A DNA stretch of 35,744 nt, taken from Candidatus Coatesbacteria bacterium. GTDB lineage: Bacteria > JAFGND01. A model generated the notes under the pieces. That model was not told the origin of the DNA. It did not search any database and worked only from the letters and a program-made list of their open reading frames with translations. Numbering within the stretch: position 1 is the stretch's first letter; each line of letters starts with the position of its first letter. The position numbers were made by a program, and so were the translations under genes. Shown piece after piece: positions 6,903 to 35,650 of this stretch. The stretch is from contig JAFGND010000067.1 in assembly GCA_016927185.1 (NCBI GenBank), positions 1-35,744 of the forward strand, in the 5' to 3' direction.

Positions 6903-7303
6903 TTTCAGCCATTCATCTTATGGAAGTTAAAAACAGTGGCTTTTGTTTTTCAGAATATCACCTTGAATCAGCTGCAATTAAGTCAAGGATTTTAGACAGG
7001 TCTTTCCAGTTAGAAGATCGCTTTGCAAAATGATAATGTGCTATCTCAGTTTCTTTCTGCCTTAATCCATTCCATCATATTCAAAGCCTTTCAATCTGTC
7101 TTTCCAGTATTCATTATCATTAAGCACTGCCTGATTATGATGATCATGCAAAAAATAAGTACTCATGACTTCACATCATTCACAAATATGATTGATTGCT
7201 GCATCCTGCTTTATTATTTCATAATACTGCATGATTTTCAACTTTCCTCTTGTCTTTTTAACAAGGCATAAAGGAACTGTTCTTGTCAAATGAAAGGAAA
7301 TTC

Positions 7304-9949
7304 ATGAATATTATCGGGATCAAGGCACTTCAGGGAGCCAATTACTATTTCGAGGAGCCTGTAATAATGATGACACTGGATATAGGTGAATGGTGCAGAT
7401 ATAACAGTTCTGATTTCAAGGAATTCACTCTTAAACTAAAGGAAATGCTGCCAACACTATCCGAACATCATTGCAGTGAGGGAATGAAGGGAGGATTGCT
7501 TGCAAGGATAGATGAGGGAACCGGATTCGCTCATATAATAGAACATGTGGCAATAGAACTTCAGAATATGGCTGGCATAGAGGTTGGTGCAGGAAAAACA
7601 AGAATTCATGAAGAACCTTCCATTTTTCACGTTGTCTATAGATATATTGATGATGAGTCAGGCATTTATGCAGGCAAAAAAGCTGTTTATATTGTGGAGT
7701 ATATACTTCATAGCCTTGAAAATATGCCTGAAGGAATTGAACGCAAGATAATTGAAAAACCTGATTTAGAAACGATTATAAATGAGATAACAGAGATAAA
7801 AGAGGAATTCACTTTAGGTCCTTCTACATCTGCAATAGTTGCTGAAGCAAAAAGGAGCGGAATCCCTGTGATCAGACTGGACAAAAAATCGCTTGTCCAG
7901 CTCGGTGCAGGCAAGTTCGCAAGAAGAATAAGGGCTACTGCTACTGACATGACGAATATAATCGCAGTGGATACTGCAGAGATACCATCGCTTGTGCAAT
8001 CAATTCTGGATAAGTCTGGGATACCCATTATTCAGACGAGAGTTACAGAAAATGTTGATGAGGCAATAAAAATAGCAGAAACCATAGGCTTCCCGCTTGT
8101 TGTAAAACCATATCTGGGACAGAAAGGAAAGGGAATAACACTTAATGTAAGAAATGAGGAGGAGCTTAAGAGTGCATATTACAGGGCAAGAAGCTTTACT
8201 GAGCTTGTGATTTTGGAGGAATACATAGAAGGATTTACTTACAGGTTTCTTGTGATAAACGGGAAAACTGCTGCTGTTGCAAGAAGAACACCTGCTTCCG
8301 TAATAGGAGATGGAGAACATACAATCTCTCAGCTTGCTGATATTGAAAACAAGAATCCCAGACGCGGAAGTGGTGACAAACCTCTTGGCAAGATAGTACT
8401 TGATAACGAGTCTGATTTCCTTTTGAAATCAAGAGGTTACAGGACTGACACAATACTGAAACAGGGAGAACAGGTATCACTTCAGATAAGCTGTTCACCT
8501 GCATTGGGAGGTTATTCTGTTGATGTTACCAAAATGGTTCATCAATCTAATTGCTATTTCGTTGAACGTGCGGTAAAAATTGTTGGACTGGACATTGCAG
8601 GTGTTGATGTTGTTGCACCTTCAATCAGGGAATTCTTCAAGGAAACTGGAGGAAAAATACTGGGGGTCTCAACTTCTCCTGACTTCAGACCTCACATCAA
8701 TCCAGCAGAAGGACAGGGCAAGAATGTAGCAAAATCTGTCATAGATATGCTTTTCCCTGAAGGCAGTAATGCATGGATCCCGCTTATTGCTGTTGCAGGA
8801 ACCTCAGGCAAGACATCTACAAGCCACATGATTACTCATATATTGACAAGTCTCGGAGAAGATGTAGGACTTGCATCTTCAGAGGGAATTTTCATGGGAA
8901 CAACGAAGATAAAAGAGGGAGACAGCTCTAATGCTAATGGTGCACAGACTCTTCTTCGGGATCCAGAGGCAGGTTGTGCTATAATAGAGGTATCCCATGA
9001 GTCAATTGAAGATGAAGGGCTTGGTTATCAGAAAGCTGATGTTTCAGTTCTTCTCAATCTTCATGATGAGTATAATGACAGAAACAGTGAAAGGACAGAA
9101 TATCTCAAGAAGCTTGTCATCAGGCAGACAGAAGATTGGGGAATAGCAGTACTTAATGCAGATGATGACCTTGTAAGCTCTTTCGCGAAAGAGATAAGAA
9201 ATGAGATAATATATTTCTCGTCTAATGAAGATAATCCTGTATTGAAGGAGCATCTTGACAAGGATGGAACACTGGTTTTATACAAAAACGGGGAGATAAT
9301 AGTCAGACAGGGAAATGATTCAACTATCCCGCTTGCAAGGATATACGAGCTCCCCTTCACGCATTCGGGGAAAGCCTCATGGCAGATATACAACTCGCTT
9401 GCTGCAGCCGCTTCAGTACTTGCACTTGGAAGGATAAGCGAGGGGAGATACAAGACTGGAAAAGGAAGAGTCTGGAAGCCTGCAGATCTTCATTTCGGAA
9501 TGGTTAGCTTCTATCCTTCAATAAATGATATCCCGGGTCTTTTAAACTATCTCAAGATAGACGGGCTTGAGATATTTTTTGACAGGGCAATAACAGAAAT
9601 TTCAATGGAATATGTTTTCAATTTCATATCAAGACAATTCACAAAGAACAAGATGCTTCTCGCTCCATTGAAGCCTCAAATCAACAGCAGTTTTATAGAC
9701 AGCATTTCAAGAAAAGCTGTTTTGTTGTTTGATAGAATTCTGCTTTTTGGAGATATAGAAGAAAGCGAATGGTATACATCGCTTTACGAAAAAAACTCAT
9801 CTAAAATTACTGTATACAAGAAAGAACAGGATGCTCTTGATGAGATTTCAGGAAAAATAGACAGGGAAGCTCTTATGCTTTATGTTACAGATAATCCGCG
9901 TAAATCTGCTGTCTTGCTGCTAAAGCTTCAGGAGAAACTTGGAAGCTAG
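7304..9949 (+). CDS. cphA: Cyanophycin synthetase-like protein (CphA architecture, divergent)
   Basis: N domain (GANY; HCSEG...EGTGFAHIIEHVAIELQ), ATP-grasp (LGPSTSAIV, LVQLG, PLVVKP, GLDIAGVDVV), Mur-ligase-like domain (IAVAGTSGKTST, VLNADD). Several catalytic motifs are altered. ATG at 7304 has an AAAGGA RBS; alternative TTG at 7283. Confidence 0.78.
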   Translation: MNIIGIKALQGANYYFEEPVIMMTLDIGEWCRYNSSDFKEFTLKLKEMLPTLSEHHCSEGMKGGLLARIDEGTGFAHIIEHVAIELQNMAGIEVGAGKTRIHEEPSIFHVVYRYIDDESGIYAGKKAVYIVEYILHSLENMPEGIERKIIEKPDLETIINEITEIKEEFTLGPSTSAIVAEAKRSGIPVIRLDKKSLVQLGAGKFARRIRATATDMTNIIAVDTAEIPSLVQSILDKSGIPIIQTRVTENVDEAIKIAETIGFPLVVKPYLGQKGKGITLNVRNEEELKSAYYRARSFTELVILEEYIEGFTYRFLVINGKTAAVARRTPASVIGDGEHTISQLADIENKNPRRGSGDKPLGKIVLDNESDFLLKSRGYRTDTILKQGEQVSLQISCSPALGGYSVDVTKMVHQSNCYFVERAVKIVGLDIAGVDVVAPSIREFFKETGGKILGVSTSPDFRPHINPAEGQGKNVAKSVIDMLFPEGSNAWIPLIAVAGTSGKTSTSHMITHILTSLGEDVGLASSEGIFMGTTKIKEGDSSNANGAQTLLRDPEAGCAIIEVSHESIEDEGLGYQKADVSVLLNLHDEYNDRNSERTEYLKKLVIRQTEDWGIAVLNADDDLVSSFAKEIRNEIIYFSSNEDNPVLKEHLDKDGTLVLYKNGEIIVRQGNDSTIPLARIYELPFTHSGKASWQIYNSLAAAASVLALGRISEGRYKTGKGRVWKPADLHFGMVSFYPSINDIPGLLNYLKIDGLEIFFDRAITEISMEYVFNFISRQFTKNKMLLAPLKPQINSSFIDSISRKAVLLFDRILLFGDIEESEWYTSLYEKNSSKITVYKKEQDALDEISGKIDREALMLYVTDNPRKSAVLLLKLQEKLGS

Positions 9950-10113
9950 CTTAATGTCTTGACACAAGCCCAGACAAGCTTGCCCTGTCCGAGATATTCG
10001 TCATAGCAATCTTCTTCAGCTTTTGCATAATATGAATAATCAGCGCAGGTAAGAGCAGTTTTCTCGAAAGCTTTTTCGCTTCTTATTACCGGTTTCGTAT
10101 ATCTCTTCAACAT
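9946..10113 (-). CDS. 55-aa putative RiPP precursor peptide MLKRYTKPVIRSEKAFEKTALTCADYSYYAKAEEDCYDEYLGQGKLVWACVKTLS
   Basis: Hand-translated (below the ORF-track cutoff). AAGGAG RBS, YxKPxI leader motif, three Cys, paralog at 35487-35650. Stop codon overlaps the cphA stop (CTAG, 9946-9949). Confidence 0.82.
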   Translation of the reverse strand: MLKRYTKPVIRSEKAFEKTALTCADYSYYAKAEEDCYDEYLGQGKLVWACVKTLS

Positions 10114-10179
10114 TTCTCCTTTTAATTACATGAAGGTGAAAGCAAATAGGATTATCTTTTGTCAATCCAAAATTTCATG

Positions 10180-11199
10180 TCATTTCAGGAATTCCCTTCC
10201 TTCCAGCATTCTTTTTCTTCTTGTGAAAGCATGGAAAACACCTCTAATTCCACCATAAATGAATGCGAAATTCCTTGCAATCTGCATAAGCATTGCAAAT
10301 AACGGGAATATTATGCCTTTTTCTCTTTTTATCCAGAATATGAAATAACTGATATTCAAAATGAAATATGCAAGAAACGGTATGAATGCCAGTTTTGGTA
10401 AAAACACTATCAGCATTATGAATGATGGAATAAGAAGCATCGTCATAAGAAGATTGAGGGCAACCTCAGGCATATTTATATCCTTTGTCTTCATGACCTT
10501 GTCCCTGGGGAAAAGCAGTGATATTATCGCTCTTGAAGTGCCCCTTCTTGCCTTCTGTATCATGAGGTCTCTGAAATTCGTCCTGTCTATATGCGGCATT
10601 CTGCTTTCCTCGAAAACCTTTATCCTGTGCTTTCTGGTTATCTCAAGTGACATCAACGTATCATCACCGCTTGCAATTCCCTGCATTATTATGGACTCAG
10701 GAGCCTTTCTGTCCAGAAGCACATCTTTCCAGTAAATGCAGTTACCTGTTGCAAGAACCGAAGCATCCCTTATCTGATTCTTGAACCAGAGGTAGAACTG
10801 GTCTCCTATTGCGAATCGGTTTATGCAGTTTTTCATGTCATATGGTTCATAAATACCGCCAACTCCACCATAATCTCTGCTGAGCTTACTCACAAGAAAT
10901 GAAAGCCAGTCAGGATGAGGTACACAATCTGAATCAGTGAATGCAATTATCTCCCCATTTGCATTCCTTGCTCCTTCCTGTCTTGCCTCTGCAGGACCTC
11001 TGTTTTCAGGCATCTTGATGTATCTTGCATTATAATTCTGGACAATTTCTAAAGAATTATCCTTCGAGCAGTCATCCACAACAATAACTTCGAATTCTGG
11101 ATAATCTTGCTTGAAAACTGCATCAAGACACAGTTTCATTGTCTTCTCTGCATTATACATCGGAATTACAATTGAAACCAGAGCCGGTTTTTCAGGCAT
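10180..11199 (-). CDS. GT2-family glycosyltransferase with C-terminal membrane helices
   Basis: VSIVIPMYN, VVDDCSKD, NRGPAEAR, AFTDSDC DxD motif; hydrophobic C-terminus; 8-bp overlap with the rSAM stop. Confidence 0.92.
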   Translation of the reverse strand: MPEKPALVSIVIPMYNAEKTMKLCLDAVFKQDYPEFEVIVVDDCSKDNSLEIVQNYNARYIKMPENRGPAEARQEGARNANGEIIAFTDSDCVPHPDWLSFLVSKLSRDYGGVGGIYEPYDMKNCINRFAIGDQFYLWFKNQIRDASVLATGNCIYWKDVLLDRKAPESIIMQGIASGDDTLMSLEITRKHRIKVFEESRMPHIDRTNFRDLMIQKARRGTSRAIISLLFPRDKVMKTKDINMPEVALNLLMTMLLIPSFIMLIVFLPKLAFIPFLAYFILNISYFIFWIKREKGIIFPLFAMLMQIARNFAFIYGGIRGVFHAFTRRKRMLEGREFLK

Positions 11200-12271
11200 T
11201 GAAATATTCCCTGTAGACAGGTTTCAATAGTCTCTTATAAAGTTTCGGATTCATGAGAACATTTGCAAAAATAGCGCATTCCCACGAACATGGAGGGCAA
11301 TATCCCTTCTTTATCCTGTCTGAAATCCCCTGAGCCTGTTCGCTTTGAAGCAGCTTCCCGAGATCCATGTCATAATCCTTCAAGTTTCCCATTTCCGGTG
11401 GACGAAGTTCACAAGGAAGAACAGCCCCGTTCTCCCTTATTATTATCATTTTCTCTCCGCAGACGCATGGGATAGCCATTTTGTTTGCTTCCCTGCTTTC
11501 TGCAACAATTTTTGTATTGAGACTGTACATTGCCCTGATTACTCCTGAAAATGGTTTTCTCTCCTTCGGTTTTCTCTTCTTCAAGAGATAATCAACTGCA
11601 GCAAGGTATTCGTGCACAGAAACATCAGCTACTTCTGGTGTCCTGCTATCCAGCCTTGCAAGAGCGATATTGTGGTTATCTGGCTTGAAGTCCTTGTCAA
11701 CAGCATCAATAATTTTCTCCATCTTGTGCTTGTTGCTGCTTGTCATTGCAGTTGTTATATCAAGAGAGAACCTTGGATACTTTATCTGCATTGTTCGCAG
11801 GTCTCTGAACAGCATGAACAAATCCTCATAGAGATTTGGAATACCCCGAAGTTCGTCATGATCCGTTCCCACTCCATCCACTGAAAACTGGAATTTTATG
11901 AAGATATTCTTTCTCTTTTTCACCATTTTCTCTATATTATCGAACATCCTGTCTCTTAAAGTGCCATTTGTAGGAATTACAAACAGTCTAGTGCCTGACA
12001 ATTTATGGAATGCAGAAACTATTTCAGGCAGATCATTTCTAAGGAATGGTTCTCCCCCGGTAAGGGTGACATACTGGAAATACTTGTATTTGCTGCACAT
12101 CTGCTCTATCTGGGAAAGATTGAGTTCTTCTTCACCATTATTGAGTCTGTTCCAGTAAAAGCAGTGATGGCATCTTGCATTGCAGCGCGAGGTTACGAAG
12201 AATATCAGATATGAGACATTCTTCGTGAAAAGCGCATTATGTATAAATTTTGTCCTGTCTATAAAGTTCAT
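11192..12271 (-). CDS. Radical SAM protein with SPASM/twitch-type C-terminal Cys domain
   Basis: CNARCHHC, LTGGEPFLR, TNG, SVDG; C-terminal CVCG...GAVLPC...CPPCSWEC. Confidence 0.9.
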   Translation of the reverse strand: MNFIDRTKFIHNALFTKNVSYLIFFVTSRCNARCHHCFYWNRLNNGEEELNLSQIEQMCSKYKYFQYVTLTGGEPFLRNDLPEIVSAFHKLSGTRLFVIPTNGTLRDRMFDNIEKMVKKRKNIFIKFQFSVDGVGTDHDELRGIPNLYEDLFMLFRDLRTMQIKYPRFSLDITTAMTSSNKHKMEKIIDAVDKDFKPDNHNIALARLDSRTPEVADVSVHEYLAAVDYLLKKRKPKERKPFSGVIRAMYSLNTKIVAESREANKMAIPCVCGEKMIIIRENGAVLPCELRPPEMGNLKDYDMDLGKLLQSEQAQGISDRIKKGYCPPCSWECAIFANVLMNPKLYKRLLKPVYREYFNA

Positions 12272-12369
12272 GTTTCTCTTTTTAATGCATATATGCTAAT
12301 AATGCTTGAAATATTGCAAGAGAAAACTGAGATTACTTGTTTTTTATTCTAGCAGATTGAGGATTAATC

Positions 12370-12506
12370 AAGGGGCTAAACCCCCTTGCTATCCATTGAA
12401 TGGGAGAACTAACTGCAACAGGTTAGAATTAATTGCTACTGATACTTCAATAGTCAGGGATTCACAGTTTTAATTTATGCTAGTAAGGGGCTAAACCCCC
12501 TTGCTA
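12370..12506. repeat. Two identical 22-bp palindromic REP-like elements
   Basis: AAGGGGCTAAACCCCCTTGCTA at 12370-12391 and 12485-12506; each folds as AAGGGG/CCCCTT. Confidence 0.8.
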
Positions 12507-13067
12507 CGTTAATTCTTCCTTCAATATCTCTATCCTGTTCATATCTAATTCATTCCAGTCATGAAGCCTTATCCAGTTCTTACCCTCTCCTTCAGAGTTG
12601 CATAATTCGTCCCCAAGCAGTATGCCAAGAATATTCAGGTTCAATGCAAGCTTGATATCACTTTCCTTGTCGCCTATTACAATGCTTCTCTTCAAATTTA
12701 TGTCAAAGTCCCTAACTGCTCGTTTCACAAGACCAGGTTTCGGTTTCCTGCACTTGCAATCCTTGAGATAAGGGAAGAAGCCTTCCTGGGGATGATGAGG
12801 ACAGAAATAAAACCCGTCTATATCTGCACCTTCAAGTCTGACAAGCTCAAGTATCCTCAAGTTTACCCTTACTACATCCTCTTCAGTGAAATAGCCTCTT
12901 GCAACACCACTTTGATTGCTGACTATTATAATAAGGTAACCTTTGTCATGAAGTCTCTTTAGTCCTTTTGCAGCATCAGGCATGAGAACGACCATATCGG
13001 GACTTGAAATGTATCCGAAATCAATATTTACTGTCCCGTCTCTGTCAATGAATGCAGCTTTTGTCAT
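12504..13067 (-). CDS. gmhB: D-glycero-D-manno-heptose 1,7-bisphosphate phosphatase (HAD IIIA)
   Basis: FIDRDGT, SNQSGVARG, CPHHP, CKCRKPKPG, IGDKESD. Confidence 0.88.
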   Translation of the reverse strand: MTKAAFIDRDGTVNIDFGYISSPDMVVLMPDAAKGLKRLHDKGYLIIIVSNQSGVARGYFTEEDVVRVNLRILELVRLEGADIDGFYFCPHHPQEGFFPYLKDCKCRKPKPGLVKRAVRDFDINLKRSIVIGDKESDIKLALNLNILGILLGDELCNSEGEGKNWIRLHDWNELDMNRIEILKEELT

Positions 13068-14290
13068 CAAGCTCCGAACTTGAGAAGCCTTCCAGCATGT
13101 GCCATTGCTAGACCTATAAGCATCTCAGATGGCATTTGCCCCATTCCTCCATGTTCGCATGCTTTTTCAGTGAATACTTTCTGGTCATCAACTCTGACAA
13201 GCTTCCCGTTTATAAGAGTTGGGACCGGATGAAAACTGTGGCTTTCCATAATGCATGGGGTAGAATGATCCGCAGTAACCAGTATCACAGCGGGTTTAAG
13301 GGCAGCTATTCTTGGTATTACTGTATCAACTTCCTCAATTACATGCACTTTTGCATCAAAATTCCCATCCTCGCCATAACTGTCTGTCTTTTTTATATGT
13401 ATGAAAAAGAAATCATAATCTTCATAATGCTTCTGAAGAGTATCAATCTCTGCTGAAACAGTTTCTCCAGCAATTTCAAGCAACTCCATGCCAGTAAGTG
13501 ATGCCAGTCCCCTGTACATGGGATAAACTGCAATTGCTGCACTTCTCATTTTGTATGTTTCCATGAAAGTTGGAAGTGGATGATATGCATCAAATCCCCT
13601 CATCAATATGGCATTAGCTTTGGGTTCATCTGACAGAACTTCACTTGCTTTCCCTATGAACTTGTTTACCAGTCCTGCAGTATGAATTGAAGCCTTGTCA
13701 GTCTCATCTGTTGATACTGCAGGAAGCGGTTTCTTGCCAGTCACCTGTGGATCAGTATCTATTATGGAGCCCCCAAGCCCTTCACCCCTGAATACAACCA
13801 TTGCCCTGTGCTCTTTCACTGCCTTGACCAGGATTTCAACTCCTTCTACTTTTATTGACGAAAGTTTCTCTACAAGTCTTATGCATTCCTCTGTGGATAT
13901 TCTTCCTGCACGCCTGTCAGTAATAACTCCATCTTTGTTTATTGTTGCAAAATTGATTCTCGATGCAATATCACCTTTCTTAAGCAGGAAACCGGCACCA
14001 AGTGCCTCCAGTATTCCCCTTCCTATAACTACATCTACTGGATTGAAACCGAAAAGACCAAGATGACCTGGACCTGAACCTGGTGTTATGCCGTAATCAA
14101 CTGGGTGACATAATCCGCATGCTCCAGCTGCAACGAGATTGTCAAGATTCGGTGTCTTTGCCTTTTCAAGAGGAGTTTCAGAGTATTTGCCAGTTGCAAG
14201 GTCTCCCAAACCATCCATTACCAGATAAACTATTTTACCGCCTTCCTGAGCCAAAGACTTGAGAAGTTTCTGTCTCTTGCTGAGCTCCAT
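13067..14290 (-). CDS. apgM: 2,3-bisphosphoglycerate-independent phosphoglycerate mutase (ApgM type)
   Basis: MDGLGD, TPLEKAKTPNLD, PGSGPGHL, GRGILEALG, DRRAGRI, TDSYGEDG, TADHSTP, HSFHPVP. Confidence 0.92.
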   Translation of the reverse strand: MELSKRQKLLKSLAQEGGKIVYLVMDGLGDLATGKYSETPLEKAKTPNLDNLVAAGACGLCHPVDYGITPGSGPGHLGLFGFNPVDVVIGRGILEALGAGFLLKKGDIASRINFATINKDGVITDRRAGRISTEECIRLVEKLSSIKVEGVEILVKAVKEHRAMVVFRGEGLGGSIIDTDPQVTGKKPLPAVSTDETDKASIHTAGLVNKFIGKASEVLSDEPKANAILMRGFDAYHPLPTFMETYKMRSAAIAVYPMYRGLASLTGMELLEIAGETVSAEIDTLQKHYEDYDFFFIHIKKTDSYGEDGNFDAKVHVIEEVDTVIPRIAALKPAVILVTADHSTPCIMESHSFHPVPTLINGKLVRVDDQKVFTEKACEHGGMGQMPSEMLIGLAMAHAGRLLKFGA

Positions 14291-19393: not shown

Positions 19394-20932
19394 ATGAAAG
19401 CCATAATATTTATCATGATTCTGCTTTTATGCAGTCTGCTTTTCGCTACTCCAGGCGATCTTCTATGGAGATATAAATCACCAAGTCAGATATGGACTCT
19501 GGTTTGCTCGTCCAATGACAAAGTTCATTTCAGCAGTGGTAATTATCTCTATACTCTTGAAGCAGATGATGGGGCATTCAGATGGAGATATCAAGCTGGA
19601 GGAACTGTTGCTCATCCTGTAGTTTTTGGACATATGGTTCTTGTTGGAAGCTATGATAACAGCCTTTATGTTCTTGATGCAAGTGATGGTTATCTTATAT
19701 TCAAATATACTACTGGTGGAGATGTAAATGCCCCTCCATGCGTATACGATAACATTGCATATTTCGGTAGCAGTGATACATACTTGTATGCAGTAGATAC
19801 GAATGATGGCAGATTAATATGGAGATACAAAACAGGTGGAGCAATCCTGGGTTCAGGAACCTGCTATTCCAATGGACTGGTTTTCGTAGGAAGCAGAGAC
19901 ACTTATTTTTATGCAGTAAACTCCATTAATGGAGAACTGGAATGGAGATTCAAGACTGGAAACCAGATAGAGACAACTCCTCATGCGAAATATGGTGTTG
20001 TATATTTCGGTAGTGATGACAATAATATATATGCAATTGAATGCGAAACAGGGAAGCTTCTCTGGACTTATCATGCAGGAGGAGGTTGCTCTGATCCCTA
20101 TGTTCTTTATAATAATCTCTACATTGGCTGTCTAAACAGATATATGTATGCATTGAATATTGATGATGGAAGTGAAAGATGGAAGTACCTTACAGGAAGC
20201 GAAGTACGTTCCTCACCATGCGCTACTGATAGTGTCGCATATGTTGGAAGCAGCGATACTTATTTTTATGCTTTCAATACTGCAACTGGAAATCCAAAAT
20301 GGACATACAAGACAGGAGGCGTAGTAACTTCTTCACCATGCGTACTGAAAGGTAATGTTTATATAGGTAGTAATGACACATATCTTTATGCTTTCGATGT
20401 AGGAGATCCAAGGATAAGAGTGACTTCACCAAACGGAGGAGAAAGTTGGGAAGTAGGCTCATCTCATCAGATAAAATGGGTTTCAACTGAGATTGATTCT
20501 GTAGTAATCGAATACTCAACAAACAATGGAAATGACTGGCTATTCGTTGCAAGATTCACAGATGAATATGAGAATTATAACTGGACAATACCCAATACTC
20601 CATCAGAAGAATGTCTTGTAAGGATTTCAGACAGGAGTGGAAACCCACAGGATGCAAGCGATAACTTATTCACGATTTACAGAACAACTGGATTTGAAGA
20701 TGGTAAAACCACAAGAAAAATGCCAGTCAAATTCAATGCATCTCCAAATCCATTCAGCAATTCGCTTCAATTGAATCTGCCGGCAAAAGCCTCAGTATAT
20801 TCGCTTTCTGGTCAGTTTATTTCCTCAATTGGAAAGGGAAATCATATAATAAACACAGATAAATGGAACTCAGGGATTTATATCATCAAATGTGGCAACG
20901 AATACAAAAGAGTGATAAAAATAAGCGAATAG
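19394..20932 (+). CDS. Secreted PQQ-like (BamB-type) beta-propeller repeat protein with Ig-like domain and T9SS-like CTD
   Basis: About 8 repeats of W-x-Y-x-TGG...SSP...VYxGSxDxxxYA; IRVTSPNGGESW Ig-like module; C-terminal ASPNPF...GIYII; AGGAGG RBS. Confidence 0.88.
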   Translation: MKAIIFIMILLLCSLLFATPGDLLWRYKSPSQIWTLVCSSNDKVHFSSGNYLYTLEADDGAFRWRYQAGGTVAHPVVFGHMVLVGSYDNSLYVLDASDGYLIFKYTTGGDVNAPPCVYDNIAYFGSSDTYLYAVDTNDGRLIWRYKTGGAILGSGTCYSNGLVFVGSRDTYFYAVNSINGELEWRFKTGNQIETTPHAKYGVVYFGSDDNNIYAIECETGKLLWTYHAGGGCSDPYVLYNNLYIGCLNRYMYALNIDDGSERWKYLTGSEVRSSPCATDSVAYVGSSDTYFYAFNTATGNPKWTYKTGGVVTSSPCVLKGNVYIGSNDTYLYAFDVGDPRIRVTSPNGGESWEVGSSHQIKWVSTEIDSVVIEYSTNNGNDWLFVARFTDEYENYNWTIPNTPSEECLVRISDRSGNPQDASDNLFTIYRTTGFEDGKTTRKMPVKFNASPNPFSNSLQLNLPAKASVYSLSGQFISSIGKGNHIINTDKWNSGIYIIKCGNEYKRVIKISE

Positions 20933-20936
20933 AATG

Positions 20937-20965
20937 ATCTCCTGCAAGAAAAACTTGCAGGAGAT
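20937..20965 (+). promoter_or_regulatory. Perfect 12-bp hairpin containing the RBS of the downstream gene
   Basis: ATCTCCTGCAAG-aaaaa-CTTGCAGGAGAT; the 3' arm contains AGGAG ahead of ATG 20973; no U-tract. Confidence 0.6.
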
Positions 20966-20972
20966 AAAATCA

Positions 20973-22415
20973 ATGAAGATACTTCATTTTTTGATTATAA
21001 TTCTTCTCTTCAAGGCTTCTTATGCATGGGAGCTGCAGTTCGGATCAGATACTTTGTATGATGAAGGAAGAGCTTCATGCAAGACATCAGACAATGGTTA
21101 TATAATAACAGGATCTTCAGGGAATTTCCTTAATGCAGAGCTTGACCTGTACATGCTTAAATTAAATGGCAATGGAGAGCTGCAGTGGGAGAAAAGAATT
21201 GGTGGCGAACTTGAGGAAAGAGGCTGGACAATAACTGCAACAACAGATGGTAATTTCATAATATCAGGTCTTACAAAATCAAAAGGTCATGGCTCAAGTG
21301 ACTTTTATACTATCATGATGGATCTGAGAGGAAACATTATTTTCGAAAAAACATATGGTTCTGAGGAATATGAAAGATGCTATTCAATAACTAATGTATC
21401 AGATGATGGCTTCATAATGAATGGCGTCAAGGGAACAGGATATGTTTATGTAGTGAGAATAGACAAAGAAGGATCCGTATTATGGGAAAAGACATACGGT
21501 CCTCAGGATGAATTCAATTACGGTAGATTTACAATAGAGACTTCTGATGGAGGTTTCATAAATTGCGGTGCTGCAAATCACTATTCATCATCTCATGGTG
21601 ATGCATACATTTTCAAGACTGACAGGAATGGCAATCTCTTATGGGAAAAATTCTTAGGTGGAGACCAATGGGATAATGCCTTGTGTGTAAGGCAAACAAG
21701 GGATAATTGTTATATCGCAGGAGGTTATACATTCTCATTCGGTTCTGGAAATGGAGATTTTTATGTAATAAAGATGGATTCTTCTGGAAATGCAATATGG
21801 GAGAAAACATATGGAGGTGAAAAAGGAGAAATCTCGAATTCCCTTGTTCTGACAGAGGATGGTGGTTTCATAATGTGCGGATATACAGAGAGTTATGGAA
21901 AAGGGGGAGAAGACGCATTCGTTGTAAAAGCTGATTCATCAGGAAATCTGGTATGGCAGAAAACTTTCGGAGATACTCTTGATGACTGGTTTCACAATGT
22001 TTTCAAGGAAAGCGATAATGTTTATACACTAACTGGAATTACTAACTATGTCAAGAACAGTGATGCAACTGGTGATGTATTCTTTGTTAAGATAGACGGG
22101 AATGGAAGCATGATAAATGAAAGAAGGATAATAACCAGAAGAAAGATTCATCCTTGCAGTTTCCCGAATCCTTTCACAGATAAAACTTACATAAGATTTC
22201 ATCTGCTTTCATACGGAAAAGTCACTGTTACCATATATGATATCACTGGTAAATTTGTTGCAAAATTATGTGACAAATATATGGATAAAGGAAGTCATGA
22301 TATTATATGGAATGGCAAGGATTTCAGGAAAAATGAAGCAGGAAATGGTATATATTTTTATGAAATAATCACAAACTTGAAGCATGAATCAGGAAAAATC
22401 CTTCACTTTAAATAA
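20973..22415 (+). CDS. Secreted beta-propeller repeat protein with FlgD-Ig/T9SS-like C-terminal domain
   Basis: Repeats of DGGFIxxG...D-x-Y-x-x-K-x-D-x-x-GN-x-x-WEKTYGG; C-terminal FPNPF...IYDITG...WNGKD...GIYFY; signal peptide from MKILHF (track start 20934). Confidence 0.85.
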   Translation: MKILHFLIIILLFKASYAWELQFGSDTLYDEGRASCKTSDNGYIITGSSGNFLNAELDLYMLKLNGNGELQWEKRIGGELEERGWTITATTDGNFIISGLTKSKGHGSSDFYTIMMDLRGNIIFEKTYGSEEYERCYSITNVSDDGFIMNGVKGTGYVYVVRIDKEGSVLWEKTYGPQDEFNYGRFTIETSDGGFINCGAANHYSSSHGDAYIFKTDRNGNLLWEKFLGGDQWDNALCVRQTRDNCYIAGGYTFSFGSGNGDFYVIKMDSSGNAIWEKTYGGEKGEISNSLVLTEDGGFIMCGYTESYGKGGEDAFVVKADSSGNLVWQKTFGDTLDDWFHNVFKESDNVYTLTGITNYVKNSDATGDVFFVKIDGNGSMINERRIITRRKIHPCSFPNPFTDKTYIRFHLLSYGKVTVTIYDITGKFVAKLCDKYMDKGSHDIIWNGKDFRKNEAGNGIYFYEIITNLKHESGKILHFK

Positions 22416-30231: not shown

Positions 30232-31431
30232 ATGCTTGGAGAAGCTGGAAGCAGGAGTGCAAGTGTGCGTTCTGATTGCTATATACTATTCAATTCTGAA
30301 GGTAACGGAAGGGAAATTAAACTGATAAGCAAAGTCCAGATCATGTATGGAAGAAGTATAATAGCACTTGTGAATGAAGTGCTTGATTTCTACAATATTG
30401 CAGACTGTACCGTACAAATAGAGGATCAGGGAGCATTACCTTTTGTTATTGCGGCAAGAATGGAGTGCGCGATTAAAAGAGCTTTACCGGATACTGAGAA
30501 TGAGTTCCTTCTTCCACTGCATAAAAGTTGCTGCTATCTTTCAAATAGAGACAGATTCAGAAGATCACGATTATATCTTCCTGGAAACCAACCAAAATTT
30601 TTCGTAAATGCTGGGCTTCACTGTCCTGATGGTATTATACTGGATCTTGAAGACAGTGTTGCCCCTTCAGAAAAGGATGCAGCAAGAATTCTTGTAAGAA
30701 ATGCATTGAGGGAAATAGATTTCAAGGGTGCTGAAAGAATGGTCAGGATTAACCAGGGCAGCATGGGTCTTGTTGATCTGGAGGCAGTTATACCTCACAA
30801 TGTACATCTTGTATTGATCCCGAAGGCAGAGAAAGCTGAGGAAGTTCAGCTTGTGGATGAAACAATAAGGCAAATGGTTCAGGACAGGGAAGTATTCCTT
30901 ATGCCCATAATAGAGAGTTGCTTAGGAGTAGAAAATGCATATGAAATAGCGAAGTCTGCCACTTCCATTGTTGCAATTGCCATAGGTCTGGAAGATTATA
31001 CTGCTGATCTGGGAACTCCCCGTTCTGAAGATGGCCTGGAGAGTTTCACTAGCAGAAGCAGGATTGTTAATGCTGCAAAAGCTGCAGGGGTACAAGCTAT
31101 AGATACAGTTTATAGCGATGTTGGAAATATGAAGGGATTATATGAGGATGTCAAGCTTGCCAAAAAACTTGGTTTCGAGGGAAAAGGTTGCATTCATCCA
31201 AGACAGATACCTGTAGTTCATCAGGGATTTGAACCTGACGCAAGGGAAATAGAGAAGGCATGCAAGATAGTCAGGGCTTTCCAGATTGCAAGCGATCAGG
31301 GATTGGGAGTAGTCTCTCTTGGAACTAAAATGATTGATCCACCTGTAGTCAAGAGAGCTATAAAGATAGTGGAAATAGCAAGGAAAATGAATTTGATTGA
31401 TGAAAACTGGATGGAAGGAGGTGCATTGTAA
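30232..31431 (+). CDS. citE: Fused citrate lyase acyl-carrier (CitD-like) and citryl-ACP lyase beta subunit (CitE)
   Basis: N-terminal EAG...RSDC...SKV..MYG..I...DQGALPFVIAAR (CitD-like), then RRSRLYLPGN, DLEDSV, IIES, GLEDY, GKGCIHPRQ, MIDPP. Confidence 0.88.
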   Translation: MLGEAGSRSASVRSDCYILFNSEGNGREIKLISKVQIMYGRSIIALVNEVLDFYNIADCTVQIEDQGALPFVIAARMECAIKRALPDTENEFLLPLHKSCCYLSNRDRFRRSRLYLPGNQPKFFVNAGLHCPDGIILDLEDSVAPSEKDAARILVRNALREIDFKGAERMVRINQGSMGLVDLEAVIPHNVHLVLIPKAEKAEEVQLVDETIRQMVQDREVFLMPIIESCLGVENAYEIAKSATSIVAIAIGLEDYTADLGTPRSEDGLESFTSRSRIVNAAKAAGVQAIDTVYSDVGNMKGLYEDVKLAKKLGFEGKGCIHPRQIPVVHQGFEPDAREIEKACKIVRAFQIASDQGLGVVSLGTKMIDPPVVKRAIKIVEIARKMNLIDENWMEGGAL

Positions 31432-32984
31432 TGGAAATGATAAAGAATGCAATAAACAGATATGTCCCTGCCCTGGTAAATGGCAAGGCAACAATTCCTT
31501 ACAAGGGAATTGGCAAGCATATACCGACTGGAAGAAAAGCAGCTCCCCCTATTGCCACATGCGCTCATTATCCATCTGACGGGAATAAGCTTGTCTCGTC
31601 TATAAGGGAAGCTTTGGAGAAATGTGAATTGAGAAGTGGTATGGTAATAAGTACGCATCATCATTTCAGGGATGGTGATCTGGTAGCTAATATAGTTTTC
31701 AAGGAAGCTGAGAAAATGGGTGTCAAAGACCTGGTATGGTTTCCATCAGCATCTTTCCCATGCCATGCACCAATTATAGAGCTTCTCGAGAATGGCGTAA
31801 TACATCATATAGAAGGCAGTCTTAACGGTCCGCTTGGTGATTTTGCCTCTAGAGGCAAGATGAAAGGGACAGCTGTTCTCCGTTCACATGGAGGGCGATA
31901 CAGAGCAATCCAGGATGATGACATACATATAGATATTACAATAATAGCAGCACCCACATCAGATCCTTTCGGTAATTCCAATGGAGTTGAAGGACCATCA
32001 GCATGTGGCTTGCTTGGTTTTGCACTTGCAGACAGCCAGTATGCAGACAGGGTGATTGTAGTTACTGCTAATCTTGTTCCGTTTCCATGCATTCCATGGC
32101 AAATTCAGGGAAATTATGTTGATTATGTTGTACAGATTGACAGGATAGGAATTCCTGAAAAAATAGTTTCAGGAACAACACAAATAACCAAAAGTCCTGA
32201 CAGGCTTCTGATTGCAGAGATGACAACCCAGTTCATGGTAGAATCTGGAATTGTTCATGAAGGTTTTTCAATTCAAGCAGGTGCTGGAGGAGTTTCTCTG
32301 GCGGTAATCGGACAACTCAAGGAATACATGAAGGAGAAAAATATTCATAGCAGATTCATGAGAGGAGGTTCAACTCAATACCTGGTAAATCTCCTTGAAG
32401 AAGGTTACACAGATTATATTCTCGATGGACAGACTTTCGATCTTGATGGCGTACGCTCTATGAGGGAAAACCCAAGACATGTCTGGACATCACCTTTTAC
32501 AAGCTACAATTATCATGGGAAGGGTAATTTCGCAGGGATGATTGATGCAACAATTCTAGGGGCAACAGAAATAGACCTGAATTACAATGCAAATGTAGTG
32601 ACACATTCAGATGGAAGGTTGCTTCACGGGATAGGAGGCTGGCAGAATTGCCTGTTTGGTAAATGTGTCATACTTACCGTACCAAGTTTCAGAGACAGGA
32701 TTCCCATCATACTTGATGAAGTGACAACAGTTTGCGGACCTGGAGATTTGATAGATGTCATTGTAACAGAAAGAGGAATTGCCATAAATCCGAGAAGAGA
32801 GGATTTGCTGGACAGTTTGAAGAATACACATCTTCCAATAAGGACTATTGAAGATCTGAAGGCAGAAGTTGAGGATATATGTGGAGGAGTTCCTGATAAA
32901 CCTGAGCTTTCAGACAATATCATTGCTGTTGTTGAATGGGTAGATGGTACTCTAATAGACAGCATAAAAGCCATTAATGATTAA
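31431..32984 (+). CDS. citF: Citrate lyase alpha subunit (citrate CoA-transferase)
   Basis: STHHHFRDGD, RSHGGR, QAGAGG, LGATEID, NANV, VTERGIAINP, DGTLID. Confidence 0.92.
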   Translation: MEMIKNAINRYVPALVNGKATIPYKGIGKHIPTGRKAAPPIATCAHYPSDGNKLVSSIREALEKCELRSGMVISTHHHFRDGDLVANIVFKEAEKMGVKDLVWFPSASFPCHAPIIELLENGVIHHIEGSLNGPLGDFASRGKMKGTAVLRSHGGRYRAIQDDDIHIDITIIAAPTSDPFGNSNGVEGPSACGLLGFALADSQYADRVIVVTANLVPFPCIPWQIQGNYVDYVVQIDRIGIPEKIVSGTTQITKSPDRLLIAEMTTQFMVESGIVHEGFSIQAGAGGVSLAVIGQLKEYMKEKNIHSRFMRGGSTQYLVNLLEEGYTDYILDGQTFDLDGVRSMRENPRHVWTSPFTSYNYHGKGNFAGMIDATILGATEIDLNYNANVVTHSDGRLLHGIGGWQNCLFGKCVILTVPSFRDRIPIILDEVTTVCGPGDLIDVIVTERGIAINPRREDLLDSLKNTHLPIRTIEDLKAEVEDICGGVPDKPELSDNIIAVVEWVDGTLIDSIKAIND

Positions 32985-35486: not shown

Positions 35487-35650
35487 ATGAAATCATACAT
35501 GAAACCAGTAATAATTTCTGAAGCAATTTTAGAAAAGTAGCACTTCTTTGTATTGATTATATATATTATACCAAGGACTATGAAGGTTGCAAAGATGATT
35601 ATTTAGGAAGAGGAAAAGAACACACTATTTGTGCAGAATTATCAAGTTAA
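35487..35650 (+). pseudogene. Frameshifted paralog of the 9946-10113 peptide (pseudogene, sequencing error, or -1 frameshift gene)
   Basis: AAAGGAG RBS; frame 0 reads MKSYMKPVIISEAILEK* (TAG 35538-35540); the -1 frame from 35537 reads VALLCIDYIYYTKDYEGCKDDYLGRGKEHTICAELSS*. The joined 54 aa align without gaps to the first peptide. Confidence 0.8.

Follow-up and report, generated by a model that had tools for sequence, protein, structure and literature searches.

Maturation of a dispersed YxxP-leader, Cys/Tyr-rich peptide family in a Candidatus Coatesbacteria genome, probably by a distant cassette and not by the radical SAM–glycosyltransferase pair beside one of its genes

Is a small Cys/Tyr-rich peptide matured by the radical S-adenosylmethionine enzyme (rSAM) and the family 2 glycosyltransferase (GT2) encoded beside it, or by enzymes encoded elsewhere in the same genome? 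The question is raised by a locus of Candidatus Coatesbacteria bacterium (assembly GCA_016927185.1, denoted G000; contig JAFGND010000067.1, positions 1–35,744, the whole of which is referred to as the window). In the initial annotation, the three adjacent genes were proposed to form an undescribed system for a post-translationally modified peptide of ribosomal origin (RiPP). We found that the peptide gene is one of 11 dispersed copies, that its leader recurs in other phyla beside a different set of genes, and that such a cassette is encoded on two other contigs (C107 and C50) of the same genome. The balance of evidence moderately favors maturation of the 11 copies in trans by the C107/C50 cassette, with the rSAM–GT2 pair being a separate sugar module. 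Because leader-type peptides adjoin the other cassette and the relatives of the rSAM–GT2 pair are without peptides, the assignment of the window rSAM and GT2 as the maturases of the peptide is probably wrong.

The elements of the locus are as follows.

11192–12271, minus strand: rSAM/SPASM enzyme, 359 aa, with CxxxCxxC from residue 30
10180–11199, minus strand: GT2 glycosyltransferase of 339 aa whose C-terminal region is hydrophobic; forms a conserved two-gene module with the rSAM
10114–10179, minus strand: spacer of 66 nt between the GT2 and peptide genes, with AAGGAG at 10121–10116
9946–10113, minus strand: precursor-like peptide, 55 aa (or 54 aa from TTG at 10110), with C23, C36, and C50 and a Ser end
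12504–13070, minus strand: GmhB-like HAD-IIIA heptose-bisphosphate phosphatase, upstream of the rSAM gene (NF006506, 149.8 bits, cut-off 178; TIGR01662, 112 bits, cut-off 44.6)
35487–35647, plus strand: second peptide-gene copy, frameshifted, 100 nt from the contig end

The initial description of three co-oriented genes, with an 8-bp overlap of the rSAM and GT2 genes (11192–11199), the 66-nt gap, the AAGGAG motif, and the C-x12-C-x13-C core, agreed with the coordinates and the sequence. The leader of the peptide, approximately residues 1–22, is KRYTKPVIRSEKAFEKTALT, and the core constitutes the remainder. The AAGGAG motif lies just 2 nt ahead of the ATG and 5 nt from the second codon, TTG (10110–10108); given this short spacing to the ATG and the M-K-x-Y beginning of the paralogs, the true start may be the TTG at 10110, yielding 54 aa with the frame unchanged. 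On the peptide strand, the spacer contains one weak promoter-like match (10178–10151), and a scan of it found no terminator-like site between the GT2 and peptide genes; with the same strand and the 66-nt gap, co-transcription of the two is thus plausible. The window peptide has no Pfam or NCBIfam match. As a separate observation, a cyanophycin-synthetase-like gene (7283–9949, plus strand; 750 bits, slightly below the curated cut-offs of 850–877) runs convergently to the peptide gene, its 3′ end overlapping the stop codon of the latter by 4 bp.

A six-frame search of the own genome (2.99 Mb, 109 contigs, 93% complete) revealed ten further copies of the peptide gene, dispersed over the assembly: two on C18, one each on C16, C90, C100, and C70, three in tandem on C6, and the copy at 35487–35647 of the window, in which MKSYMKPVIISE is read in one frame and the remainder (…KVALLCIDYIYYTKDYEGC…ELSS) in another. 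The C90 copy has AAG where the remaining copies carry ATG. In the alignment of ten copies, 14 columns are invariant (K3, Y5, P8, S12, E13, E17, L21, C23, Y29, C36, G42, G44, K45, and C50), and the family is characterized by a YxKPxI...FE(K/T)TALxC leader (KxYxKPxIxSExxFEKTALxC in the window family), at least three Cys residues, and a C-terminal Ser. In all 45 pairs of the ten copies without the frameshift, the proportion of nonsynonymous differences (pN) was lower than that of synonymous differences (pS), with a median pN/pS of 0.41 and synonymous sites mostly saturated; also, the DNA similarity between copies ends at the ORF (open reading frame) borders. From these two observations it follows that the copies are protein-coding genes under purifying selection and not a repeat element. 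The 55-aa ORF is a real, selected gene, and its product looks like a RiPP precursor with a YxxP leader and a Cys/Tyr-rich composition, upholding the initial view of this unannotated ORF.

The surroundings of the copies are heterogeneous. None of the ten other copies adjoins an rSAM–GT2 pair, an rSAM, or a GT2, which does not support the assignment of the window pair as the maturases. Their neighbors encode DnaJ and adenylate kinase; TusA, a cysteine desulfurase, and a Se/S carrier protein; a STAND-type ATPase; and a ParE toxin. Five of the 11 copies adjoin genes for secreted PQQ_2/BamB-like β-propellers with type IX secretion system (T9SS) sorting tails (on C90, C100, and C6, and at 19394–22415 of the window).

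Relatives of the peptide were sought in larger collections. When 1.84 billion representative proteins were searched with a profile, 19 matched: 13 proteins of 53–74 aa have the same build, and in another two (62 and 109 aa) the likeness is limited to the leader and the C-terminal K...C...S. All these relatives are unnamed metagenome proteins, mostly on short contigs, P0131 being the closest to the window peptide. The large repeat proteins P0121, P0134, and P0136, matching by short repeated motifs only, were rejected, and P0138 (1231 aa) was not treated as a relative. A pattern scan of genome contigs returned none; that of metagenomes returned two loci, one of which (L019) was rejected as lying inside an unrelated 127-aa protein. 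A protein-atlas look-up gave unnamed clusters alone, all scoring under 0.9.

The leader proved more widespread than the whole peptide. A profile built from 22 family members was run against 400 other genomes, each from a different phylum than the window (the source genome is the sole member of its phylum in that set), and positions 1–24 only were matched, in 10 small ORFs of seven genomes. All ten read ...(K/R)xYxKPxIxS(E/Q)xxFETxALxC..., with a Cys near the end and a terminal Ser. At seven of the ten loci, cassette proteins (PqqD, SPASM rSAM, HprK-like kinase, or PF14907 nucleotidyltransferase) are encoded within ~2 kb, whereas a window-type rSAM–GT2 pair is found near none of the ten. This distribution runs counter to the initial proposal that the adjacent rSAM and GT2 are the maturases. 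The ten loci are arranged as follows.

G272: HprK-like, PqqD, peptide, SPASM rSAM, and PF14907 (NTP_transf_5), in this order in one row
G014: HprK-like, PqqD, rSAM, peptide, and a 113-aa signal-peptidase-like protein, in this order
G323:C326 and G169:C207: rSAM directly adjoining the peptide
G164: rSAM-PDZ protein upstream of the peptide, then HprK-like and PF14907
G318: peptide, HprK-like, and PF14907; a 373-aa PDZ protein without an rSAM match in the position of the rSAM-PDZ protein of G164
G323:C53: HprK-like near the peptide
G169:C105, G169:C4, and G080: no cassette genes

It is conceivable that the peptides are unmodified, Cys-stabilized folded mini-proteins, for instance secreted or regulatory ones, and that what looks like a leader at the N-terminus belongs to the fold. 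Such a role would suit the conservation of the core, which equals that of the leader, as well as the heterogeneous neighbors and the five copies beside PQQ_2 genes of T9SS cargo. We regard it as very improbable, since otherwise unrelated cores of other phyla have just the leader in common with it and are encoded there near genes for PqqD, rSAM, and kinase, the peptide sequence has no signal peptide, and the invariant C-terminal Ser fits the substrate rule of HprK-like peptide kinases, at least as reported for PsmK (PMC6993621).

The own genome contains a cassette of the same kind. Searching it for PqqD, as the initial annotation had suggested, gave two matches to PF05402 above cut-off, on C107 (63 bits) and C21 (28 bits), and the former belongs to the following series of genes on C107 and C50.

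C107:3280–4440: PF14907 nucleotidyltransferase (NTP_transf_5), 106.7 bits; a second PF14907 copy is on C91
C107:4506–5174: HprK-like gene, with just 23 bits for HprK_rel_A
C107:5171–5449: PqqD-like RiPP recognition element (RRE), PF05402 63 bits, lasso_PqqD_Bac 41 bits (cut-off 80)
C107, to 6302: rSAM/SPASM, cut at residue 289 by the end of the 6.3-kb contig
C50, start: C-terminal SPASM piece of 70 residues, matching ~302–336 of 369 residues in relatives and 293–340 of 353 in ScmF
C50, after the SPASM piece: 66-aa ORF MKEKYSKPQI..., with a KYSKPQI leader and 7 Cys, ending in Thr
C50:382–741: S24/S26-like (signal-peptidase-like) peptidase, 119 aa; Peptidase_S24 22.7 bits (cut-off 23.3), sigpep_I 24.7 bits (cut-off 47)

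The stretches concerned are 3280–6302 of C107 and 2–741 of C50, and a kelch propeller gene comes after the C50 peptidase. All four C107 genes have counterparts in the G272 row, the C50 order of rSAM, peptide, and peptidase is that of G014, and the two contig ends share no overlap. Most likely, C107 and C50 abut, a single cassette having been split by the assembly. An iterated search ties the HprK-like gene of C107 to kinase-like genes beside leader-type peptides in five other loci. The cassette rSAMs of the other genomes match the C107 rSAM over its full length (blastp E, 4e-27 to 6e-37), and they match the window rSAM over ~85 residues of the radical SAM core only (E, ~1e-6). The precursor encoded in cis on C50 and the 11 copies have in common Y-x-K-P-x-I and a 15-residue spacing from Pro to Cys. 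C107 and C50 show no exporter, a genome-wide exporter search not having been made.

To the C107 PqqD and the window peptide, structure prediction assigned a complex with a score of 0.49, the best of three controls scoring 0.02. Of the solved complexes, 116 of 157 pass the mark applied, as do 2 of 215 mismatched pairs, though the range up to 0.60 holds 18 of the 157 solved complexes and both of the passing mismatches. At least 76% of the contacts agreed between runs, with a partner pLDDT of at least 45, and the analyst's own alignments were used. Because RRE–leader complexes have already been solved, the pass may show likeness only. The C107 PqqD could bind the peptide, as the predicted complex weakly suggests. 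The other PqqD-like gene, a weak match on C21 (570–4664; L091), stands directly before a gene for a 1246-aa adenylate-cyclase/AAA_16/TPR protein resembling the kinase/cyclase fusion of TOMM systems (243 bits, cut-off 706), and this pair comes after a PQQ_2 propeller gene with a T9SS tail.

For the maturation of the 11 copies by this cassette, we infer the following steps. The Y-x-x-P of the leader would be bound by the discrete PqqD-type protein of C107, and the cysteines would be cross-linked by the SPASM rSAM encoded beside it, its gene being the one divided between C107 and C50. A serine, probably the C-terminal one, would be phosphorylated by the HprK-like kinase and perhaps decorated further by the PF14907 nucleotidyltransferase, and the leader would be cut off by the small signal-peptidase-like protein of C50.

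Several of these elements recall the linear polyphosphorylated peptides (LPP; lppA-K-B-S-D-N) of Paenibacillus alginolyticus, reported in Nat Commun in 2026 with the leader YxxPxVLxHQxIxFETxxS (PMC13381572). According to that report, a stand-alone RRE, a kinase of the HprK-like type, an NTP transferase, and an SpI peptidase are encoded in capsule loci, YxxP is needed for RRE binding, and the kinase adds several phosphates to one serine; this toolkit was characterized only in 2026, for linear Bacillota peptides, and the final product is not yet known (PMC13381572). When the family consensus KxYxKPxIxSExVxEKTALxC was compared by eye, the Y, P, and [V/I] of Y-x-x-P-x-[V/I] were in register and followed by an F-E-T-type motif, of which the F-E-(K/T) here is 2 residues nearer the proline. 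The association with polysaccharide loci, the discrete PqqD-like RRE, and the NTP transferase (PF14907, set beside LppN/PsmN by description only) are shared, the latter two on C107. The HprK-like gene here matches HprK_rel_A at 23 bits, and the peptidase stays below the Peptidase_S24 and sigpep_I cut-offs. Differences are the SPASM rSAM and at least three precursor Cys residues here (the main text of the LPP paper does not mention radical SAM; PMC13381572), the C-terminal position of the conserved Ser, whereas LPP is phosphorylated on core Ser3, the 11 dispersed precursors, and the MsbA-like exporter, which was not seen on C107/C50 (again short of a genome-wide search).

Similarly, the YxxP leader, with Y5 and P8 invariant here, is bound by a PqqD-type B1 protein in the lasso peptides paeninodin and pseudomycoidin (PadeK/PsmK, PsmN), in which the C-terminal Ser is the phosphorylation site of the HprK family; the Ser end is invariant in the present family. 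PsmK is described as phosphorylating the C-terminal Ser of the lasso precursor, and the nucleotidyltransferase PsmN as needed for the attachment of 1–2 hexoses to the phosphate (PMC6993621). In contrast to the lasso pathways, no B2 leader protease is found here, Transglut_core3 (PF13471) giving one match of 17.6 bits (cut-off 26), and an rSAM stands in the place of the cyclase, a lasso cyclase not having been searched for. The HprK-related, PqqD-like, and SPASM rSAM kinds of protein also occur together in the SynChlorMet models of NCBIfam (ScmC/D/E/F; TIGR04249, TIGR04248, TIGR04250, and TIGR04251), which are among the top NCBIfam matches of the cassette proteins, yet far under the cut-offs (ScmD, 31.9 vs 100 bits; ScmE, 92.6 vs 400; ScmF, 21.6 vs 400, for the C50 fragment). 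By these scores, the cassette proteins are related to SynChlorMet proteins but are not members of those families. The initial statement that the peptide matches no class was therefore too strong, inasmuch as the leader resembles that of LPP (PMC13381572) and the cassette the SynChlorMet models. Our literature searches found no paper on the SynChlorMet cassette and none combining radical SAM, PqqD, HPr kinase, and a precursor peptide, or HprK with an rSAM RiPP; for PF14907 with radical SAM, they found one unrelated phosphonate paper.

If the cassette matures the peptide, what are the window rSAM and GT2? The rSAM has a Radical_SAM domain (58.9 bits) and a SPASM domain, albeit at a marginal Pfam score (22.3 bits, cut-off 21.5); the GT2 matches Glycos_transf_2 with 128.5 bits. 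Neither reaches a curated NCBIfam family, the top matches being TIGR04053 for the rSAM (68 bits, cut-off 395) and MftF (TIGR03965) for the GT2 (95.4 bits, cut-off 280). Since CxxxCxxC already appears at residue 30, the rSAM has no N-terminal RRE. Gene searches of the window found no RRE, PqqD-like gene, peptidase, or exporter, confirming a reservation made at the outset, and the remainder of the window consists of housekeeping genes. Rfam and tRNA scans of 9500–13200 gave nothing, and the two metatranscriptome runs checked against the region gave no contigs. A PDB sequence search with the rSAM yielded no match better than E 3.6e-5, the chains retrieved being SkfB, MoaA, and one other.

The window rSAM has 565 relatives at E ≤ 1e-10, of which one is 91% identical, one (P0002) 60%, and the others ~30–38%; by source name they belong to Acidobacteriota, Omnitrophota, Chloroflexota, and DPANN archaea, and three are GT2–rSAM fusions of 615–629 aa. 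A relative (E ≤ 1e-25) is present in 69 of 401 sampled genomes, and of the 29 best loci 14 have a GT2 resembling that of the window no more than 1.5 kb away. Full-length GT2 matches with 34–35% identity stand directly beside the rSAM at loci L055 and L056, and L059 encodes a 744-aa fusion. Genes around nine pair loci encode short GT2s, PMT_2 GT-C proteins, epimerases/dehydratases, methyltransferases, B12-binding rSAMs, a UDP-galactopyranose-mutase-like flavoprotein, a carbamoyltransferase, GT4, DegT, and YfhO, bearing out the early caution that similar rSAM–GT2 pairs occur in glycan loci. No precursor-like small ORF was present in the flanking gaps of any of 13 rSAM–GT2 pairs; rSAM homologs in sugar or envelope loci without peptides, an outcome that the initial annotation itself had named as counting against its proposal, are thus what was observed. 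A scan of genome contigs with the rSAM gave one weak, irrelevant locus. The modules in glycan and envelope loci resemble the window pair in being adjacent or fused and in sequence (rSAM 30–38%; GT2 up to 35%, full length) and differ from it in that their loci are without a peptide. The GmhB-like phosphatase encoded upstream gives the window pair a sugar-nucleotide context. Judged from these sequence relationships, the window rSAM–GT2 pair looks like a separate two-gene module for a sugar or glycolipid, on which it would act downstream of the GmhB-like phosphatase.

Two paralogs of the rSAM in the own genome (on C22, and on C94 after dxs) have no adjoining GT2 or peptide. The latter (C94:36421–37515; 30% identity) overlaps dxs, encoding 1-deoxy-D-xylulose-5-phosphate synthase, at the 3′ end of that gene; this hints at a lipid or isoprenoid role for this branch. 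At L054, in another phylum, a PQQ_2 propeller directly adjoins a GT2–rSAM pair.

The proposal of a self-contained three-gene RiPP system, in which the window rSAM/SPASM cross-links the peptide and the GT2 glycosylates it, draws on the operon-like layout, the SPASM domain, and MftF as the top NCBIfam match of the GT2. A contig from another study spanning 9300–12399 has the same layout, but at ~98% identity it represents a strain-level relative and was rejected as independent synteny. We consider such a system quite improbable: the rSAM is without an RRE, its motif beginning at residue 30, none of the 13 related pairs, in glycan loci, has a peptide, the ten other copies lack such neighbors, and the fused forms and the spread of the pair across phyla including archaea contrast with a peptide family nearly confined to one lineage. 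The analogy to mycofactocin (MftA, MftB, MftC, and MftF), likewise a peptide with a SPASM rSAM and a GT2, did not hold, as the GT2 remains far from MftF membership (95 vs 280 bits). The MftC model TIGR03962 is absent from the best 25 of 64 families matched by the window rSAM, the window is without an MftB-type RRE, and the peptide ends in Ser, whereas MftA presumably ends in Gly-Val-Tyr.

How much does the adjacency mean? The genome is unusually dense in such enzymes, with 69 radical SAM and 18 SPASM domain matches in 2.99 Mb. From a rough estimate assuming a gene length of ~1.2 kb and the observed peptide–rSAM distance of 1.1 kb, the probability that an rSAM gene is this near to a random point is ~8%, and at least one of eight separate peptide loci would fall within that distance of some rSAM with a chance of about one half, a further point against a three-gene system. 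As part of the same, moderately favored reading, the adjacency in the window would result from chance or from the known tendency of such peptide genes toward glycan loci.

The adjacency might nevertheless be functional if the cassette first matures the peptide and the membrane GT2, perhaps with the rSAM, then adds or elaborates a sugar, for example on the phosphoserine. There are precedents: IgtG, a membrane GT2 with four predicted transmembrane helices, glycosylates a lasso-peptide Ser, and the GT2s of glycocins S-glycosylate Cys (PMC11912497), and for the LPP and paeninodin clusters in capsular polysaccharide loci the authors suggest that neighboring sugar genes may modify the peptide (PMC13381572). 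In keeping with this, the peptide gene shares its strand with the GT2 gene across a 66-nt gap free of terminator-like sites; the leader-type peptides of G080 and G014 sit among Wzy, DegT, GT2, PIG-L, and Glycos_transf_4 genes, that of G080 being flanked by an NrdG-type activase on one side and by GT2, DegT, and Wzy genes on the other; and several of the HprK-like paralogs of the own genome (on C38, C54, C11, C35, and C70; loci L114–L117 and L083) have as neighbors a TMEM260-like GT-C and a GT2, a GT9 heptosyltransferase and Bac_transf, and Wzy_C and a PEMT-like methyltransferase. One of these paralogs lies 2.7 kb from the C70 peptide copy, and the one on C35, a true member of HprK_rel_B (436 bits), adjoins a CofD-like gene. 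However, just one of the 11 copies has an rSAM–GT2 neighbor, none of the ten leader-type peptides elsewhere is near a window-type pair, the pair and the peptide are 28 kb apart in G164, which has both, and the pair is present in many genomes where the leader profile found no such peptide. On balance, we hold this combination to be possible but unlikely. Rather unlikely, too, is an extension of it, in which the Ser-terminated peptides would serve as acceptors or primers for a phosphoserine glycan built by the nucleotidyltransferase and membrane GT2s, with the rSAM modifying the sugar.

Returning to maturation in trans by the C107/C50 cassette with a separate rSAM–GT2 module, a number of observations weigh against it. 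Besides the co-orientation of the peptide with the GT2 just discussed, core and leader are equally conserved among the paralogs, an uncommon pattern for RiPP precursors present in many copies. A separate precursor, without SE..FEKTAL, is encoded in cis within the cassette, and none of the 11 copies adjoins the cassette in this assembly. Elsewhere, three of the ten leader-type peptides have no cassette gene within ~6–8 kb. With about six HprK-like paralogs in the genome, the responsible kinase is ambiguous, and the predicted PqqD–peptide complex argues only weakly for binding. Moreover, the top own-genome match to the cassette rSAMs is that of C99 (E, 3e-60), in a polysaccharide-export locus without PqqD; rSAM similarity alone thus cannot identify the maturase and was rejected as a means of picking it.

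Two further features of the window were noted. The intergenic region upstream of the rSAM gene contains two copies of a G+C-rich hairpin of 22 nt, AGGGGCTAAACCCCCTTGCTA, at a distance of 115 nt (12371–12392 and 12486–12507). In contigs of two further metagenome studies, the depth over this stretch is ~9 times that of its flanks; one such contig contains a 115-nt joint that goes back, and loose ends continue the unit. These signs suggest that the tandem array is longer, with ~72 bases per unit conserved and ~43 variable. Our own assembly has two copies only, with no Rfam or tRNA match. The citrate lyase genes (30232–32984, plus strand) encode an ACP/MdcD-like domain fused to the N-terminus of the β subunit (HpcH_HpaI), followed by CitF.

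In a genome containing 69 rSAM domains, the presence of an rSAM gene beside a small ORF rich in Cys is no proof of a RiPP cluster. The rSAM–GT2 module, widespread, sometimes fused, and unstudied, merits a substrate assignment of its own. If the peptides do act as glycan primers, this would explain why peptide, six HprK-like kinase, and sugar genes are interleaved in the genome, why the cassettes lie in polysaccharide loci, and why the precursor is present in 11 copies. Altogether, this candidate-phylum genome joins the leader logic of LPP to an rSAM cross-linker and an 11-copy family of Cys/Tyr-rich, Ser-terminated peptides, and provides a defined set of substrates and a short list of enzymes for testing.

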